Made by a program: the position numbers and the translations under genes. This document shows positions 8,584 through 61,187 of a stretch of DNA of 64,000 nucleotides, piece after piece. The DNA comes from Octopus vulgaris (Eukaryota). Location of the stretch: the NCBI GenBank assembly GCA_951406725.2, contig CATOCA020000001.1, positions 6,448,001-6,512,000 of the forward strand. Direction: 5' to 3'. The number at the start of each line of letters is the position of its first letter. Position 1 is the first letter of the stretch. The notes beneath the pieces were generated by a model that saw nothing but the letters and a program-made list of their open reading frames with translations, did no database searches and was not told where the DNA came from.

Positions 8584-10605
8584 CTAGTTTGTGAATCCAC
8601 CTCTGATACGTGGCACTTGATCAACAAGGGAGTTCGATGCTGCTGCCCGCATCCGTGTCTCCTGTCGTGAGGTAGGTTCATCTGGGACTCCCAACAAGAA
8701 GAGATCCAGTTTAGTTTTAAAGAAACCCACATCCACACCATGTAAGTCTCTCAGGCATTTAGGGAGGATGTTAAAGAGCTGTGGTCCTCTGAAACCCAAG
8801 CTGTTGCAGTATCTGGACCTGTATTTTGATGGTGATGTTGGAATCCTTGGCACCACGCAGCGGCGCCCCGTTCTGCGGTTGGAGTAACTTTGAATGCCAA
8901 AGTTTGGGACAAGACCCTCCAGGATTTTCCAGATGTATATCACTGCATATCTCTCCCGCCTCCGCTCCAGGGAGAAGAGGTTTAATACCTTCAGTCTTTC
9001 CCAGTAGCTGACATTTTGCATTGAGACGATTTTCTTTGTGTAGCTTCTCTGAGTTGCTTCGAGTTCTGCTGTTTGTTTTATATTGTGTGGTGACCAAAGT
9101 TGGGAGCAGTAGTCCAAGCGGCTGAGGACAAATGTTTTCCATAGGACCATCAGTGTCTCCTTCTCTCTTGTTCTGAAAGTTCGGAGAATCCATCCAGCTA
9201 GCCGTCTGCATTTTATCACCAGATTAGCAATATGCATTTGGAAAGATGCATCATTGCTCATGTCAATGCCCAGGTCACGCACTGATTTTGACTCAGGGAT
9301 TGCAATTCTTCCTGGGCCAGTGTATCCAGTCTTCACGTCATTTACCTTTGTGTGCCAGTAGCGCAGGGCCTGGAACTTACCTGCATTAAACTGCATGTTG
9401 TTGTCCTCAGCCCACCTGTATATTGTGTCCAGCTCATGTTGCAGATGCGCAATATTTTCAGGGTTTTGTATTGCGTGGGAGACTTTTGTGTCATCTGCAT
9501 AGCTAGCAAGGGTGGTCATCGTAGCAACTGAAGGCATGTCTGAAAGGGCCACTATGAACATCAGTGGCCCCAAGACAGTGCCCTGTGGGACACCGCTTGT
9601 TATTTGCGTTTCCCTGGAGGTGGCTCCATTGCTCACAACTGCCTGTTTTCTGTCTTTTAGGAAGTTGTGCAGCCACTCTCCAAGTTTCCCGCCTATGCCG
9701 AGACCACGCAGTTTGTGACAGATCATACCATGGTCGACTTTATCAAAGGCTTTTGCAAAGTCAAGATATATTACATCCACATTTGAGCCATTTAGTAGCT
9801 GTTTCAACACCCAGTCATAGTGTTGCAGGAGCTGTGTTAGGCAGCCTCTACCTGGTCGAAATCCATGCTGGGTGTCAGACAGTAAGTCATTTTCTTCAAG
9901 GAACATGATTAGTTTCTTGCGGACTATTCGTTCCATGACTTTGCTGATGTGTGAGGTCAGAGAGATAGGCCTATAATTTTTAGCATCTGCTCTGCTACCT
10001 CCCTTATGGATAGGGCATATTACCCCCTCTTTCAGTTTGACTGGGAGCTTACCACTTGCAAGAAAGCTCTGAAAAAGAAGCTGTAGCGGTTTTGCAAGGG
10101 CTCGTTTGCACGATTTGAGAAGGATCGCTGGGAATCCATCAGGTCCAGCAGCTGAGTTTGTGTCAATCTCATCAATGGCTAGTGTGATATCATCTTCTTC
10201 GATGTTGATGTACTCAATTTTTGTCTCTTTGGCCGCTGGTAAAGTGGCAAAGAATTCTTCTGGGTTGTTTACTTGCCTGTGTCCTAGAGGTGTAGTGAAC
10301 ACACTTTGGAACTGTTCGTTCAGTATTTCACTTATCCTCGTGGGATTTCCTGTGAGAGAGCCATCTTTTTGGAAGAGAGGTCCTATTCTCTGGTGCACTG
10401 TGGCTGTCTCTTTGGCAAACTTAAAGAAAGCTTTAGGGTTTGATTTTATATTTTCTATTACCCAAGCTTCTTTATCTGCTCTCTCCTTTTCATGGGACTG
10501 ATGTAGACTTTTCTCAGTTTCCATTAGCATTCTTTCGAGCCGAGACTTCTCACCACTTTTGGTGTGCTTGCTCAGGCGGTTTGCAATCCTTGTCCGTCGT
10601 CTCAT
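8584..10605 (-). CDS. LINE ORF2 reverse transcriptase portion (673 aa)
   Basis: NYRPISLTS, QHGFR, YLDFAKAFDKVDH, SGVPQGTVLGPLMF, YADD, SRLDYCSQLWSP. Confidence 0.95.
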   Translation of the reverse strand: MRRRTRIANRLSKHTKSGEKSRLERMLMETEKSLHQSHEKERADKEAWVIENIKSNPKAFFKFAKETATVHQRIGPLFQKDGSLTGNPTRISEILNEQFQSVFTTPLGHRQVNNPEEFFATLPAAKETKIEYINIEEDDITLAIDEIDTNSAAGPDGFPAILLKSCKRALAKPLQLLFQSFLASGKLPVKLKEGVICPIHKGGSRADAKNYRPISLTSHISKVMERIVRKKLIMFLEENDLLSDTQHGFRPGRGCLTQLLQHYDWVLKQLLNGSNVDVIYLDFAKAFDKVDHGMICHKLRGLGIGGKLGEWLHNFLKDRKQAVVSNGATSRETQITSGVPQGTVLGPLMFIVALSDMPSVATMTTLASYADDTKVSHAIQNPENIAHLQHELDTIYRWAEDNNMQFNAGKFQALRYWHTKVNDVKTGYTGPGRIAIPESKSVRDLGIDMSNDASFQMHIANLVIKCRRLAGWILRTFRTREKETLMVLWKTFVLSRLDYCSQLWSPHNIKQTAELEATQRSYTKKIVSMQNVSYWERLKVLNLFSLERRRERYAVIYIWKILEGLVPNFGIQSYSNRRTGRRCVVPRIPTSPSKYRSRYCNSLGFRGPQLFNILPKCLRDLHGVDVGFFKTKLDLFLLGVPDEPTSRQETRMRAAASNSLVDQVPRIRGGFTN

Positions 10606-11425
10606 AAGAATCCTCCTTCTCTAGGGATCCTGTTTTTATTCTTGTGTGTGCTGGCCCTGCACATTGGGACATATTTGTCACATATGGCTTGTATTATGGA
10701 CATGAAGTGTTTGTGTTTCATGTTTATGTCCGGTGTGGAGAGACATTCAGGCCAATCCTGTTTGAGGATCTCTTTCTCAATCGACTTCCAGTTGGCTTTA
10801 TGAAAGTTTAAGTTGGAGAGATGGTGGGTGCTTCGTATAGGCTGTGTGTCTGCGGGGGCTTTTGTTCCATACATAGACAGCTCTATTATGTTGTGATCCG
10901 AGATCATTGTCGGCATCACATTAACATTATGGATAATATCCATATTGTTTGTAAAGCAGAGATCCAGTATATTATCTGCCCTTGTTGGTTGCAGAACTAT
11001 TTGCTCCATGAAAGAGGTATTTGTGAGATGGAGCAGGGACTCCACCTGTGCCTGCTGATGGTGTGTCATCCCTGGGAGCATCTGCCCCCAAGGCCATTCC
11101 ACATTGGGGAGGTTAAAGTCACCCATGAAGAATACACTGTTGTGCTGTTCAAGGTTGGTGAGGACTTCTCCTATTTTTGTTAGGCAGTCTTCAAACATGC
11201 CTGAGTGTTTTGGGGCGTCTGGTGGGCGATATGTAGTGCATATGACGATATTCAGTTGTCTTATGTGTACAATTTGAGTTTCACATACTGAGTTTGAATA
11301 TGACAGCAGGACCTGGGGCGTGAGGTCATCTCGGATGTACATTGCAACTCCACCATGGCTCCTCCCTTTTCTATCTGTGCGTATGACTGCATATTGCGGC
11401 ATGTGTATTTCTGCATCACCTATAT
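10602..11425 (-). CDS. LINE ORF2 apurinic-like endonuclease portion, frameshifted from the RT part
   Basis: GGVAMYIR, YRPP, MGDFNLP, PTR..NILDL, SDHN motifs; the listed ORF start at 11456 lies in unrelated flanking sequence. Confidence 0.9.
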
Positions 11426-11597
11426 CGGGAGAGTTTACGAAAAAAACAAAAGACAAAGACAGGTGGTGTAGAAAACAAACAGATGTATTAGTATAACGCT
11501 TAGGAATAAAAAAAAAGTGTTTTACGTTTCGAGCCTACGCTCTTCTACAGAAAGGGAGACAGAAAAAAAGGAGAGAAACAAGGGGAGAAAAAATGTG
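11426..11597. mobile_element. Short non-coding repeat, probably Penelope-like terminal fragment; inverse paralogue of 18780-18952
   Basis: gagagtttacgaaaaaaacaaaagac..ggtggtgtagaaaacaaacagatgtattagtataac..tttcgagcctacgctcttc is the reverse complement of 18830-18950. Confidence 0.55.
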
Positions 11598-13240: not shown

Positions 13241-13415
13241 CCACTTATGTATATCAGGTTCGAAAGAAAGACCTTCATTTGAATTTCAAGATGACAAAGA
13301 AACAGTGCCTGAAATAAATAGCAGCATTAATCAGCAGCAGCGCTACCGCCGCATAGAATGCCTGCTGCCTATGACGTAATAGCCTGCAACATCCTAGCAG
13401 TCGTCAGTCAGCATT

Positions 13416-14162
13416 ATGCTGTACAGGAGACGCCCACGCATTATAGGCAGGCGAAAGAGTTTTTTAGGAAGAGGAATGTATTACGTAATCGGAGACGTTA
13501 TCGACGCCGTCGGCAGTATCGTCGTCGCCGTAATGGAAGATACACTATTTATCCTCTACCCCCCCCCCCGTGTTAGACAATCATCAGTTCAATCTTTTTT
13601 TAAAGTGGAACAACTAAAAATTAAAGATGAAAAAACTCCTATGACAATATCATGTACATGGGCACAAATGAATGATTCAATTGAGAATGTAAAAGCTAAC
13701 ATATGGAGAACGCTATTCGATCAGTGGCAGGTTCTACGTTTCCGATATGTATTTGAAGTATATAAAAAACAAAAAGCTGGTGCAATTATCCCAAGACTAT
13801 ATTACACTTACGATCGAGATATTCAAGGCAAACATATAGATGACTCAGAAATATTTAACATCCTAAATATTAAGATATTAAGAGAAGACAGAAGAGTTAA
13901 AGTTTCCTATCGTCCAAGATGGACTTGGATTACACACGATAAAAGTTATGATGAAGGTGACCCTAACCAATATCCTAATACGATCATTAGAGGTTCACAA
14001 CGATGGGATATGGCACAAGCTCCTTTCGGTGAAAATCCAAACAAAGCATTTCCTCAACATAGTTATAACGGTATGGCTATGGTTCTTCATGCTCAGCCTA
14101 ACTCCAGTATACTTCTACGTAAATTTATTGGTCGAAGAGATACCCAAATTTACAAAAATTGA
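13416..14162 (+). pseudogene. Endogenous CRESS-DNA (circovirus-like) capsid protein gene; Arg-rich arm partly in an alternative frame
   Basis: MLYRRRPRIIGRRK plus overlapping-frame RNRRRYRRRRQYRRRRNGR; LFDQWQVLRFRYVF resembles the circoviral capsid FxxYRIxKVKVxF strand; VSYRPRW and HSYNGMAM resemble RYFTPKP and HxGL; ~250 aa, intronless, AATAAA at 14336-14341. Confidence 0.75.
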
Positions 14163-18779: not shown

Positions 18780-18950
18780 TAGCCACTACACATTCTATAT
18801 TTTCCCTCCTTGTTTCTTTCTGTTTTCCTTTCTGTGGAAGAGCGTAGGCTTGAACCGTTAAAGACTTTTTCACTTCCCAAGAGTTATACGAATACATTTG
18901 TTTGTTGTCTACACCACCAGTCTTCGTCTTTTGTTTTTTGTGAACTCTCC

Positions 18951-18998: not shown

Positions 18999-19000
<2 letters not shown>

Positions 19001-19314
19001 AGATGTACTCGCATAGCAAGTAATTTGATCTGAGATCGTGTGCTGAAACGAAAACAATTGCAGCGTGGAAGGTGTTTATAAGCCATTTAAGAAACACACA
19101 AAAGCCGTTCGATTCACTTCAACATTTAAGTTTAATTTGTCAAAATATTTTCGTCACTAAAATCCAGATGCAGCACGGATTTTTGTCAGTGAACAGGTCG
19201 CGGATTTTAGCGACGAAAATATTTTAACAAATTAAACTTAAATGTTGAAGTGAATCGAACGGCTTTTGTGTGTTTCTTAAATGGCTTATAAACACCTTCC
19301 ACGCTGCAATTGTT
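18999..19314. repeat. Long palindrome between (TA)n tracts; ~115-bp arms 19052-19166 and 19202-19314
   Basis: aacaattgcagcgtggaaggtg...ttttcgtcactaaaatcc / ggattttagcgacgaaaa...caccttccacgctgcaattgtt. Confidence 0.9.
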
Positions 19315-19330
19315 ATATATATATATATAT

Positions 19331-19703
19331 AATATTAATTAAGGGTAGAAATTGATATTTATCAATTAAGACCAGTGGTCTAGCATATTAAAAAAGAATC
19401 CGAAGATTAAAATATTTATATATACCAATTAAGGACTGAACACGAAAAGTGGACAGTCAACATGCTAGATATAGACGTCAAAATAACGGACCATGCTGAT
19501 GATGGCTGCAGTTTTCCTTGCGGAAAATAACAGCTGAAACTAAGTTAGTACATGGGTAATTATTTTATTTCGTATATTTTTCACTTGTTTATTGCTATGG
19601 TTTTGTGTTGAGTTTGATCTGAGAACATAATCTTTTGTGGTGAATGGCGATTTGACGTCTATATCTAGCATGTTGACTGTCCACTTTTCGTGTTCAGTCC
19701 TTA

Positions 19704-19707
<4 letters not shown>
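19331..19707. mobile_element. Penelope/retrozyme-like non-coding element with ~57-bp inverted repeats (19427-19483 / 19650-19707) in (TA)n
   Basis: Inverted arms caattaaggactgaacacg...gacgtcaaa; shares aagggta.aaatt..atcaatt..acca motif with the 45- and 60-kb elements; contains a hammerhead fold. Confidence 0.7.
19491..19555 (+). ncRNA. Type I hammerhead ribozyme motif
   Basis: Stem I CCATG/CATGG; core CTGATGA (19496-19502) plus one extra T; stem II GGCTG/CAGCT with inner TTTTCC/GGAAAA; GAAA; stem III ACTAA-G-TTAGT; predicted cleavage after GTA (19550). Confidence 0.75.
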
Positions 19708-19781
<74 letters not shown>

Positions 19782-20064
19782 TGTATGTATGTATGTATGT
19801 ATGCTAGTATTGCGTCTAGTACAGTGGATCTGTGTATTGCACCTATACTGTAATACTGTGGTATTGCAGCCAATCACTACAACACTACAGCATGATGACT
19901 ACTTCATCGAATTTTCCACTGCCAGCACCATCAAGCAAACTGTATTGCAATATTGACCACTATACCAATAAACTATATCATCACTACCACTTCTACTACT
20001 ACCACTACTAATATACTAATATTACCACCGCAGCATCTTAACTCAGTAATGTAAACATAGCATC

Positions 20065-23859: not shown

Positions 23860-24903
23860 CTACCACTACCACTACCACCACAACCACCACCACAACCACC
23901 ACCACTACATTCGGTACAACTACTACTACCACTACCATTACCACCACAACCACCACCACCACAATAGATACCACTGCTACTACTACTACCACCACCACCA
24001 CCACCACAATAGATACCACTGCTACCACCACTACAATCACCACCACCACCACCACAATAGATACCACTGCTACCACCACTACAATCACCACCACCACCAC
24101 CACTACAATAGATACCACTGCTACCACCACTACAATCACCACCACCACCACCACTACAATAGATACCACTGCTACCGCCACTACAATCACCACCACCACC
24201 ACCACCACAATAGATACCACTGATACCACCACTACAATCACCACAACCACTACAATAGATACCACTGCTACCGCCAATACAACCACCACCACCACCACTA
24301 CAATAGATACCACTGCTACCGCCACTACAATCCCCACAACAACTACAATAGATACCACTGCTACCACCACTACTCACCACCACCACCACCACCACAATAG
24401 ATACCACTGATACCACCACTACAATCACCACCACCACCACCACCACAATAGATACCACTGATACCACCACTACAATCACCACCACCACCACCACCACAAT
24501 AGATACCACTGATACCACCACTACAATCACCACCACCACCACTACAATAGATACCACTGATACCACCACTACAATCACCACACCACCACCACCACCACAA
24601 TAGATACCACTGATACCACCACTCACCACCACCACCACCACCACAATAGATACCACTGCTACCGCCACTACAATCACCACCACCACTACAATAGATACCA
24701 CTGCTACCGCCACTACAATCACCACAACCACTACAATAGATACCACTGCTACCGCCACTACAATCACCACCACCACTACAATAGATACCACTGCTACCGC
24801 CACTACAATCACCACCACCACCACCACTACAATAGATACCACTGCTACCGCCACTACAATCACCACCACCACTACAATAGATACCACTGCTACCGCCACT
24901 ACA
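23860..24903. repeat. Minisatellite ACAATAGATACCACTG(C/A)TACC(A/G)CCACTACAATC(ACC)n running into the gap
   Basis: About 20 repeats of a fixed core separated by variable ACC runs. Confidence 0.95.
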
Positions 24904-45031: not shown

Positions 45032-45161
<130 letters not shown>

Positions 45162-45344
45162 AAAGGGCTTAGTAAAATAAATTACTTTGCCGCATACTGA
45201 ACTCGTTAGAAATAGCAGCTAAAAAAACTTTTTATAAAACTATTTCTAACACTTAAAGAAAACCTCTCTCATATAGTGTTTGCTCAATTCAACCCAAGAA
45301 AGTATGAGGGTAGAGACATTAAAAAATCAAATGCAAAGATTATT

Positions 45345-45397
45345 TGAGTACGTACGTTTCAAGATTAGTCAAAATCGACCCTTCTCTCATCAGCTCA
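45345..45397 (-). ncRNA. Type I hammerhead ribozyme motif
   Basis: Exact reverse complement of 46271-46323. Confidence 0.85.
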
Positions 45398-46270
45398 GAA
45401 TGCCCTTGTTTGAATTTGAAAACACTGAAAATGGGAGCATACCCTTTCGGCTTGTTATCGCTTCTGAAGATCTGTTCCAAACTAACAGTGCCAACAAACT
45501 CAAATATGCAAGCGAAGAATTTCTGTTCTCCCCTTTCCACCAGCGTGGGTTAAAATCAGCAAACACTATGCTTTTTTCGGTAAAATCCGAGACAATTAAG
45601 TAGAGAGAGATGAATTATAATTTCAACAATTGAGGGTAAAATTAATTAATTAATTAATCAATTTCACCAAGTATTCAGTATGCAAAGTGACAATTTAAGG
45701 CAAATTCAAATTATTACATTATATAAAAGGGCTTAGTAAAATAAATTACTTTGCCGCATACTGAACTCGTTAGAAATAGCATTTAATGTCTCTACCCTCA
45801 TACTTTCTTGAGTTGAATTGAGCAAACACTATATGAGAGAGGTTTTCTTTAAGTGTTAGAAATAGTTTTATAAAAAGTTTTTTTAGCTGCTATTTCTAAG
45901 GAGTTCAGTATGCGGCAAAGTAATTTATTTTACTAAGCCCTTTTATATAATGTAATAATTTGAATTTGCCTTAAATGGTCCCTTTGCATACTGAATACTT
46001 GGTGAAATTGATTAATTAATTAATTAATTTTACCCTCAATTGTTGAAATTATAATTCATCTCTCTCTACTTAATGTCTCGGATTTTACCGAAAAAAGCAT
46101 AGTGTTTGCTGATTTTAACCCACGCTGGTGGAAAGGGGAGAACAGAAATTCTTCGCTTGCATATTTGAGTTTGTTGGCACTGTTAGTTTGGAACAGATCT
46201 TCAGAAGCGATAACAAGCCGAAAGGGTATGCTCCCATTTTCAGTGTTTTCAAATTCAAACAAGGGCATTC

Positions 46271-46323
46271 TGAGCTGATGAGAGAAGGGTCGATTTTGAC
46301 TAATCTTGAAACGTACGTACTCA
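46271..46323 (+). ncRNA. Type I hammerhead ribozyme motif
   Basis: Stem I TGAG/CTCA; core CTGATGA (46275-46281); stem II GAGA/TCTT with inner GTCG/TGAC; GAAA; palindromic stem III ACGTACGT; predicted cleavage after GTA (46319). Confidence 0.85.
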
Positions 46324-46455
46324 AATAACCTTTGCATTTGATTTTTTAATGTCTCTACCCTCATAATTACTTGGGTTGAATTGAGCAAACACTATATGAG
46401 AGAGGTTTTCTTTAAGTGTTAGAAATAGTGAAATTGATTAATTAATTAATTGTTG

Positions 46456-46506
<51 letters not shown>

Positions 46507-60378: not shown

Positions 60379-60381
<3 letters not shown>

Positions 60382-61181
60382 TAATACTAAGTAATTAAGG
60401 GTTTAGCAACGAATTGCCTCACCAACATACCGAATTTAGAAATAGCAGTCAAAGAGATATAGCTATTCCTTCTACTAAAAGGGGGATCTCAGTAAAAACA
60501 CAGCACTTAAAAGGCAAACACAGACAGGTAAGAAAGAAAGAATGAAATGACGGCAATCCATCATGCAATTTTAAGTTATCTACGGACGTACGTTTCGAGA
60601 TCAAGTTTTAGGATATCATAAGAATTAGAAAATTCTACTTTACCCAGATTTCTTCTCTCATCGGCGCAGGATACTACAATTGTGAATAATTGTATATTAA
60701 ATTTTGAGATACTAGAATGCGTCATCTCAACTCAGTGTCAGAGCGAGCCAAAGCATGACCAGTACCACGAAATTCAAAGTTTGAATGAAAGTTTGTGTCA
60801 CCAGCCCCCTTCCACCCGCGTGCAGCCAAGACAAAATGCTGTGGTCATTTACTGGGATAAAATATGGTTATCAGTAATAATAAAAGGGTGAAATTAATTA
60901 ATTAGGGATAATTATCAATTACACCAAGTAGATTTCGGTATGTAAAAGCCCCATTCGAGGAAAATTTAAGTAATACTAAGTAATTAAGGGTTTAGCAACG
61001 AATTGCCTAACCAACACACCGAATTTAGAAATAGCAGTCAAAGAGATATAGCTATTCCTTCTACTAAAAGGGGGATCTCAGTAAAAACACAGCACTTAAA
61101 AGGCAAACACAGACAGGTAAGAAAGATAGAATGAAATGAGGGCAATCCATATCCCTAATTAATTTCACCCTTTTATTATTA

Positions 61182-61187
<6 letters not shown>
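60379..61187. mobile_element. Penelope/retrozyme-like insertion: 589-bp monomer, ~180-bp direct repeat, short inverted end
   Basis: gtaatactaagtaattaagggtttagc at 60381 and 60970; 61151-61187 inverts ~60869-60909; flanked by (TA)n. Confidence 0.85.
60580..60669 (-). ncRNA. Type I hammerhead ribozyme motif with U4C core variant and long stem II insert
   Basis: Minus strand: CTGCG-CCGATGA-GAGA..TCTC-GAAA-CGTACG-TC-CGTAG; stem I CTGCG/CGTAG; stem III ACGTACGT; cleavage triplet GTC. Confidence 0.75.

Follow-up and report, generated by a model that had tools for sequence, protein, structure and literature searches.

The window, a 64,000-nucleotide stretch of Octopus vulgaris DNA, is AT-rich and microsatellite-rich, contains LINE reverse transcriptases (RT) and yielded no tRNA. 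Near 19 kb it holds a short insertion with a hammerhead motif, whose flanks are single-copy within the window (Table 1). The copy is non-coding over the part present here, with no RT plus GIY-YIG frame inside it, and the 5 long frames of the window that were scanned, out of 87, gave no protein of a Penelope-like element (PLE).

Table 1 Features of the 19-kb insertion and of its hammerhead motif (coordinates are positions in the window).
Feature	Position	Strand	Basis or remark
Left (TA)n target remnant, common to the neighbouring element	19315–19330		Seen in sequence
One-sided tail, ~92–95 nt, only on the inverted copy	19331–19425	-	Contig of run X1, motif search, alignment
Inverted copy of the element 3' end, containing the left 57-bp repeat arm	19426–19484	-	Repeat search, contigs
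Head-to-head inversion junction, 5' truncation point of the sense copy	19483–19484		Contig matches
Type I hammerhead	19491–19555	+	Descriptor scan, folds
Stem I, 5' strand (CCAUG)	19491–19495	+	Descriptor scan
Core (CUGAUGA)	19496–19502	+	Descriptor scan
Extra U between A9 and G10.1	19503	+	Descriptor scan; no variant listed in four runs
Outer stem II	19504–19508 with 19531–19535	+	5 bp, then a 2x2 internal loop
Inner stem II hairpin, 7 bp	19511–19517 with 19522–19528	+	Beyond the 2x2 internal loop
GAA	19536–19538	+	Core strand
Palindromic stem III (ACUAA-G-UUAGU), putative dimer interface	19539–19549	+	Homodimer fold; family variants keep self-complementarity
A19550, end of the GUA site	Predicted cut after 19550	+	
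Stem I, 3' strand (CAUGG)	19551–19555	+	5 bp with CCAUG
Non-coding 3' region up to the main insertion end, includes the right arm (19651–19707)	19556–19707	+	No open stretch above 28 codons
Right (TA)n, then (TATG)n microsatellite	19708–19803		Seen in sequence

The motif is a real type I hammerhead with a complete core and one extra letter, U19503. The first-pass annotation had proposed its parts from CCAUG to CAUGG, and all of them were recovered. The elements required of a type I core (CUGANGA, G12-A14, A15.1-U16.1 and an NUH site) are present as CUGAUGA, GAAA and GUA. With stems of 5/5/5 and the inserted U it was the top match of a descriptor scan over both strands of the window, scoring 15 with a descriptor composed after the motif had been seen. 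The strict core gave four matches in 100 block-wise dinucleotide shuffles of the window, all scoring 12 or less, and the relaxed core gave 12, one of them with a score of at least 15. The fold of the motif has a z-score of -3.14, and 1 of 200 shuffles folded equally well. Rfam reported no hammerhead family here at E values up to 10, and it also missed the motif at 46 kb despite its canonical core, which indicates that its models do not cover such long-stem-II forms. Over the whole window, the 150 of 433 Rfam matches listed included only microsatellite-driven miRNA matches.

Two related elements in the window also carry hammerheads, one with a canonical core in two copies (45397–45345 on the reverse strand and 46271–46323 on the forward strand) and one with a CCGAUGA core, in which position 4 is C, and with a very long stem II (60669–60580, reverse strand). 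The descriptor scan bore out the earlier statement that all three stems of the 19-kb motif differ in sequence from those of these two and still pair. The first stem II pair (10.1–11.1) is G-U in the 19-kb copy and at 45 kb, and G-C at 60 kb; position 11.1 is C or G in single contigs of the 19-kb family.

Stem III, as drawn in the first-pass annotation, would have a 1-nt loop and cannot fold within one molecule. In the predicted monomer, helices I and II were well formed with the structure open at helix I, helix III had a pair probability of 0.02, and the core mispaired with the helix III strand at ~0.9. The homodimer reached a minimum of -48.2 kcal/mol, against 2 x -21.0 kcal/mol for the monomers, and this minimum is the active double-hammerhead arrangement; helix III was thus predicted to form between two molecules only. 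The 45- and 60-kb motifs were likewise predicted to favour dimers, via palindromes of their own. These folds point to a dimer-dependent hammerhead at 19 kb that would cleave as a pair. The 7-bp extension that the window fold gives to stem I was not taken as conserved structure, as it is partly built from junction letters; on visual inspection, the upstream sequence of native copies can pair with 19556–19561 instead.

The hammerhead was described earlier as lying between ~57-bp inverted repeats in (TA)n. A perfect inverted repeat of 57 nt exists (19426–19482 and 19651–19707, 100% identical), but only its right arm touches (TA)n. Nor is the element bounded by terminal inverted repeats, since the left arm lies 95 nt inside, and the repeat was probably made at insertion as a by-product of inversion. 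The native order is preserved in a 535-nt contig of run X1, the longest contig and open at both ends, which passes from 19483–19707 directly into the reverse complement of 19425–19334 with 0 differences and carries 112 and 106 further letters at its ends. The tail is therefore native sequence downstream of the main 3' end. From this continuity we conclude that the insertion consists of a 5'-truncated sense piece, cut off 13 nt ahead of the core, joined head-to-head to an inverted 3' end that extends 92–95 nt further on its left. Sense matches begin at 19483 and inverted matches stop at 19484, with ~2 nt compatible with either side. The native continuation is seen in 17 and 10 contigs that have loose ends behind 19484, and the native sequence before 19483 was identical in all four runs compared and different from the window.

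Other copies have (TA)-rich loose ends at both the main end and the tail end, in 16 contigs before 19334 and 8 before 19431 in run X2, and in 7 before 19412 in run X19. Five further joints of the inverted part to other breakpoints in the sense part were found, each in a single contig, and four are unreliable, with fewer than 30 letters on the short side; the window's own 19483/19484 junction was not among the joints listed in the four runs. These observations bear on whether the element is a MITE, a miniature DNA transposon, that has captured a hammerhead, inserts at TA and is bounded by terminal inverted repeats of 57 bp. The perfect repeat, small size, TA flanks and high copy number would suit such an element; its left arm, however, is internal, with 95 nt between it and the end, the part that is inverted in the window is colinear in the native element, and other contigs suggest different breakpoints. 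This explanation is largely refuted and we consider it highly improbable.

To profile the family, we compared the contigs of 4 of 24 listed runs at 80% likeness with a 3% listing threshold. At least half of the sampled words were contained in 20 of the 24 runs (9 studies, 4 organism labels), and the four runs compared gave 3, 1,536, 828 and 26 contigs matching the 19-kb family, which extends at least 112 nt upstream and at least 106 nt downstream of the part in the window. The contig counts indicate a high-copy family, where contig depth is not taken as copy number and copies below 80% identity are invisible. The suggestion that hammerhead motifs may be abundant in this genome agrees with the 1,536 and 828 contigs in two runs and with the four intact-looking and two decayed motifs of the window. 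One contig of run X3 spans the motif and, with X3 only guessed to be RNA, was set aside as uninformative on expression or cleavage. An 18-nt pattern matched 120 metagenome loci, but the best of their alignments to the element covered 35 nt and was attributed to chance; a 22-nt pattern had no match in prokaryote and viral contigs.

The variants listed over the element comprise 11 substitutions and 10 indels. Three of the 21 fall within the motif, which makes up 17% of the length, so variation in the motif is not depleted overall. All three lie in the middle of stem III (its central G changed to U, the same G deleted, an A added) and keep its self-complementarity; none was listed in the core or at U19503 in the four runs. 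The added A and the G-to-U change are equal in depth and contig count in run X2 and, if linked, would make a perfect 12-nt palindrome. One further contig has a 10-nt palindrome with a double compensatory change, on both sides. In one X2 contig, the inner stem II hairpin seemed to carry a compensatory change; we discounted it, as its 5' side looks like the tail at another inversion junction.

The conservation pattern bears on whether the hammerhead is a dead relic or a chance arrangement passively carried by a real element. That view could draw on the missing Rfam match, the misfolding monomer, the G-U pair at 10.1–11.1 and the finding that ribozyme activity is dispensable for anole PLE insertion in vitro (PMC11167929). 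Yet the core is complete and stands out in the shuffle control, no core variant was listed in the four runs, the stem III variants preserve the palindrome, and two related families retain the motif with different stems. We therefore regard a relic as improbable.

The claim that the 19-kb element represents a third, distinct hammerhead-bearing family related to those at 45 and 60 kb was supported. The latter two are colinear and can be aligned from end to end; they repeat every 564 and 589 nt, respectively, contain no sense frame longer than 74 codons, and have one 111-aa antisense frame without a Pfam match. Their common order is hammerhead, 160–210 nt, main end, about 90–95 nt, and tail end. 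A tail motif occurs four times in the window, always within the 19-, 45- and 60-kb elements. The shared terminal motif reported earlier is real but modest for the 19-kb element: 33/1000 and 27/1000 shuffles scored as well as its tail against those at 45 and 60 kb, whereas none of 1000 did so for the 45-kb tail against the 60-kb tail. Against the 45-kb element, the region 3' of the cut site aligned no better than shuffles (478/500). The 45- and 60-kb elements occupy the same microsatellite of a tandem array, and four of six paralogous sites examined are empty, which indicates recent, independent, (TA)n-directed insertion of these two families.

Several structural details accompany these relatives. 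In the span 45151–46460, a non-coding hammerhead unit of 564 nt is present as two copies arranged head-to-head; both are partial tandems, and a rearranged piece of the tail motif lies at the right end of the span. The CCGAUGA-core hammerhead belongs to a 589-nt unit that, with a partial tandem and a short inverted tail copy, occupies 60379–61187. The array itself (25000–64000) is built of units of several kb with 91–98% identity in the tested flanks, and the two elements sit in different units.

We compared the insertion with published systems on the basis of the available portions of the papers cited. PLE hammerheads belong to type I and have a nucleotide between 9 and 10.1, a helix I of 4–5 bp and an enlarged helix II, and they occur as dispersed single motifs and as opposite-strand pairs 100–700 bp apart (PMC4209133). 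They include min-HHR variants and others with a palindromic helix III, and are dimer-dependent (Cervera and de la Pena 2014; PMC4209133). The 19-kb motif shares the extra nucleotide, a 5-bp helix I, the enlarged helix II and the palindromic helix III. It differs in its longer palindrome (11 nt), a helix II interrupted as 5+7 bp, G-U in place of the highly conserved G10.1-C11.1, and no PLE reading frame seen beside it. The inserted core nucleotide, presented earlier as unusual, is a published hallmark of PLE hammerheads (PMC4209133) and also occurs in a viroid: the CChMVd (+) hammerhead has a natural extra A between A9 and G10.1, where a U gives 3–4-fold faster trans-cleavage (PMC3705267). That extra nucleotide is at the same place, but in a viroid RNA, which is unrelated to this element. 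The available text of PMC2632901 does not address an extra core nucleotide.

The insertion geometry also has a precedent. PLE insertions show an inverted 5'-truncated copy, a one-sided tail of 30–40 nt and a bias to microsatellites and (TA)n (PMC8557442, PMC3846280). The 19-kb insertion resembles those of EN+ PLEs in its head-to-head inverted 5'-truncated copy, one-sided tail, (TA)n target, present here and in other copies, and microhomology junction; its tail is longer (~92–95 nt), and the related units in the window are non-coding and shorter than 600 nt. The element thus works like a PLE pseudo-LTR insertion with a ribozyme of PLE type, for which the extra core letter and the inverted ends are already known.

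Non-LTR retrozymes (PMC7229834, 10.64898/2026.07.22.740005) are likewise AT-rich and non-coding, as is the part in the window, and bear type I hammerheads. The 19-kb copy differs in having one motif rather than a tandem array of two, and a unit of at least 535 nt against ~300 nt typically (51–972 nt reported). We therefore withhold the strict label of retrozyme, which would call for a tandem motif pair or a demonstrated circular RNA. PLEs have been proposed as mobilisers of retrozymes (PMC7229834), and a preprint makes the case that the retrozymes of animals derive from PLEs, are non-autonomous and often occur as monomers, and reports that only one of nine Xenopus retrozyme dimers cleaved in vitro (10.64898/2026.07.22.740005).

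Taken together, we interpret the 19-kb element as an insertion, truncated at its 5' end and inverted head-to-head, of a PLE-mobilised, retrozyme-like element that is high-copy and probably non-autonomous, a reading to which we give a probability of about 0.6. The main rival invokes the same insertion mechanism for a truncated pseudo-LTR of an ordinary, autonomous, protein-coding PLE, and differs only over the part of the unit that is unseen. In its favour, the majority of PLE insertions are truncated at the 5' end and PLE hammerheads mostly occur as single motifs (PMC8557442, PMC4209133), and the family runs on by at least 112 and 106 nt beyond the part in the window. Moreover, A9-U19503-G10.1 reads AUG, and the anole PLE frame opens where stem II begins (PMC11167929); the frame opened by this AUG closes after 11 codons. 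Anole and rotifer PLE frames cross the pseudo-LTR end and tail (PMC11167929, PMC3846280), whereas all frames at 19 kb are closed within 28 codons, and both related families in the window are closed non-coding units. As the full unit of the 19-kb family is unseen, non-autonomy is borrowed from these sister families, whose similarity to it is modest. We consider an autonomous source the less likely of the two. The single truncated copy at 19 kb cannot propagate by itself.

For the PLE-mobilised, probably non-autonomous element, the following route may be envisaged. A tandem or partial-tandem source copy would give a longer-than-unit RNA, in which two hammerheads could pair via the palindromic stem III, as in the computed fold, and cut after GUA (19550), slowly or with the help of protein. 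The PLE protein of anole cuts and extends both strands of AT-rich DNA in vitro, initiates reverse transcription internally at two places, which mark the limits of the tail, and is required for the activity of the hammerhead, which is dispensable for insertion (PMC11167929). By analogy, a PLE RT/GIY-YIG protein would nick both strands of the (TA)n target and start inside the RNA at two sites separated by ~92–95 nt, at 19707 (main end) and ~19334 (tail end). Two incomplete cDNAs would then join at their 5' truncation points by short microhomology, leaving the apparent inverted repeat and the one-sided tail; the geometry of this joint is shown by the sequence and the contigs, and its chemistry is presumed.

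More tentatively, the three families together may represent a recently active superfamily of non-coding, 550–600-nt mini-PLEs, whose RNAs would be processed by hammerheads, possibly into circles, and inserted into (TA)n from two internal priming sites ~95 nt apart. The tail motif would be a candidate protein-binding signal, and the ribozyme would have diversified (extra U, G-U closing pair, U4C core, and 8–12-nt palindromes that could confine dimer partners to their own family). Within this scheme the extra U may be the leftover middle of an ancestral PLE start codon, A9-U-G10.1; the three supplementary text files of PMC11167929 gave no match to this idea. If the superfamily holds, it would form a dispersed link between PLE pseudo-LTRs and tandem retrozymes and a minimal natural template for PLE insertion assays.

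In the literature outside subscription papers and Repbase, we found no paper describing such hammerhead elements in octopus or cephalopods. A high-copy hammerhead family is here missed by Rfam and would be misannotated as a MITE. Three related families within 64 kb, with recent insertions, offer short natural substrates for open PLE questions on the tail, the inversion and the role of the ribozyme; the longer tail, the non-coding units of less than 600 nt and the core variants are the parts that deserve attention.

The surroundings hold further elements. A neighbour in the same (TA)n (18999–19314) has an inverted repeat of 113 nt and extends by 55 nt on one side only, a geometry that it shares with the 19-kb insertion; the descriptor scan found no hammerhead in it, and its 55-nt tail has no similarity to the hammerhead elements of the window. 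A fourth family has two copies with a decayed minimal hammerhead, at 18828–18863 (forward) and about 11553–11519 (reverse), both with an extra A after position 9, a 4-bp stem II, a 4-nt palindrome and U at core position 6, and with a TA-type end ~90 nt downstream. The first of these adjoins the same microsatellite cluster as the 19-kb element (fold z-score 0.17), and the second adjoins the upstream end of a LINE on the reverse strand (8584–11534), whose frames for endonuclease (310 aa) and reverse transcriptase (678 aa) are almost uninterrupted. A 254-aa open frame on the forward strand (13398–14162) has no Pfam match and is not low-complexity. At 23860–24903, a 45/51-bp tandem repeat of ~20 copies, threonine-rich in one frame, stops at a 100-N gap.
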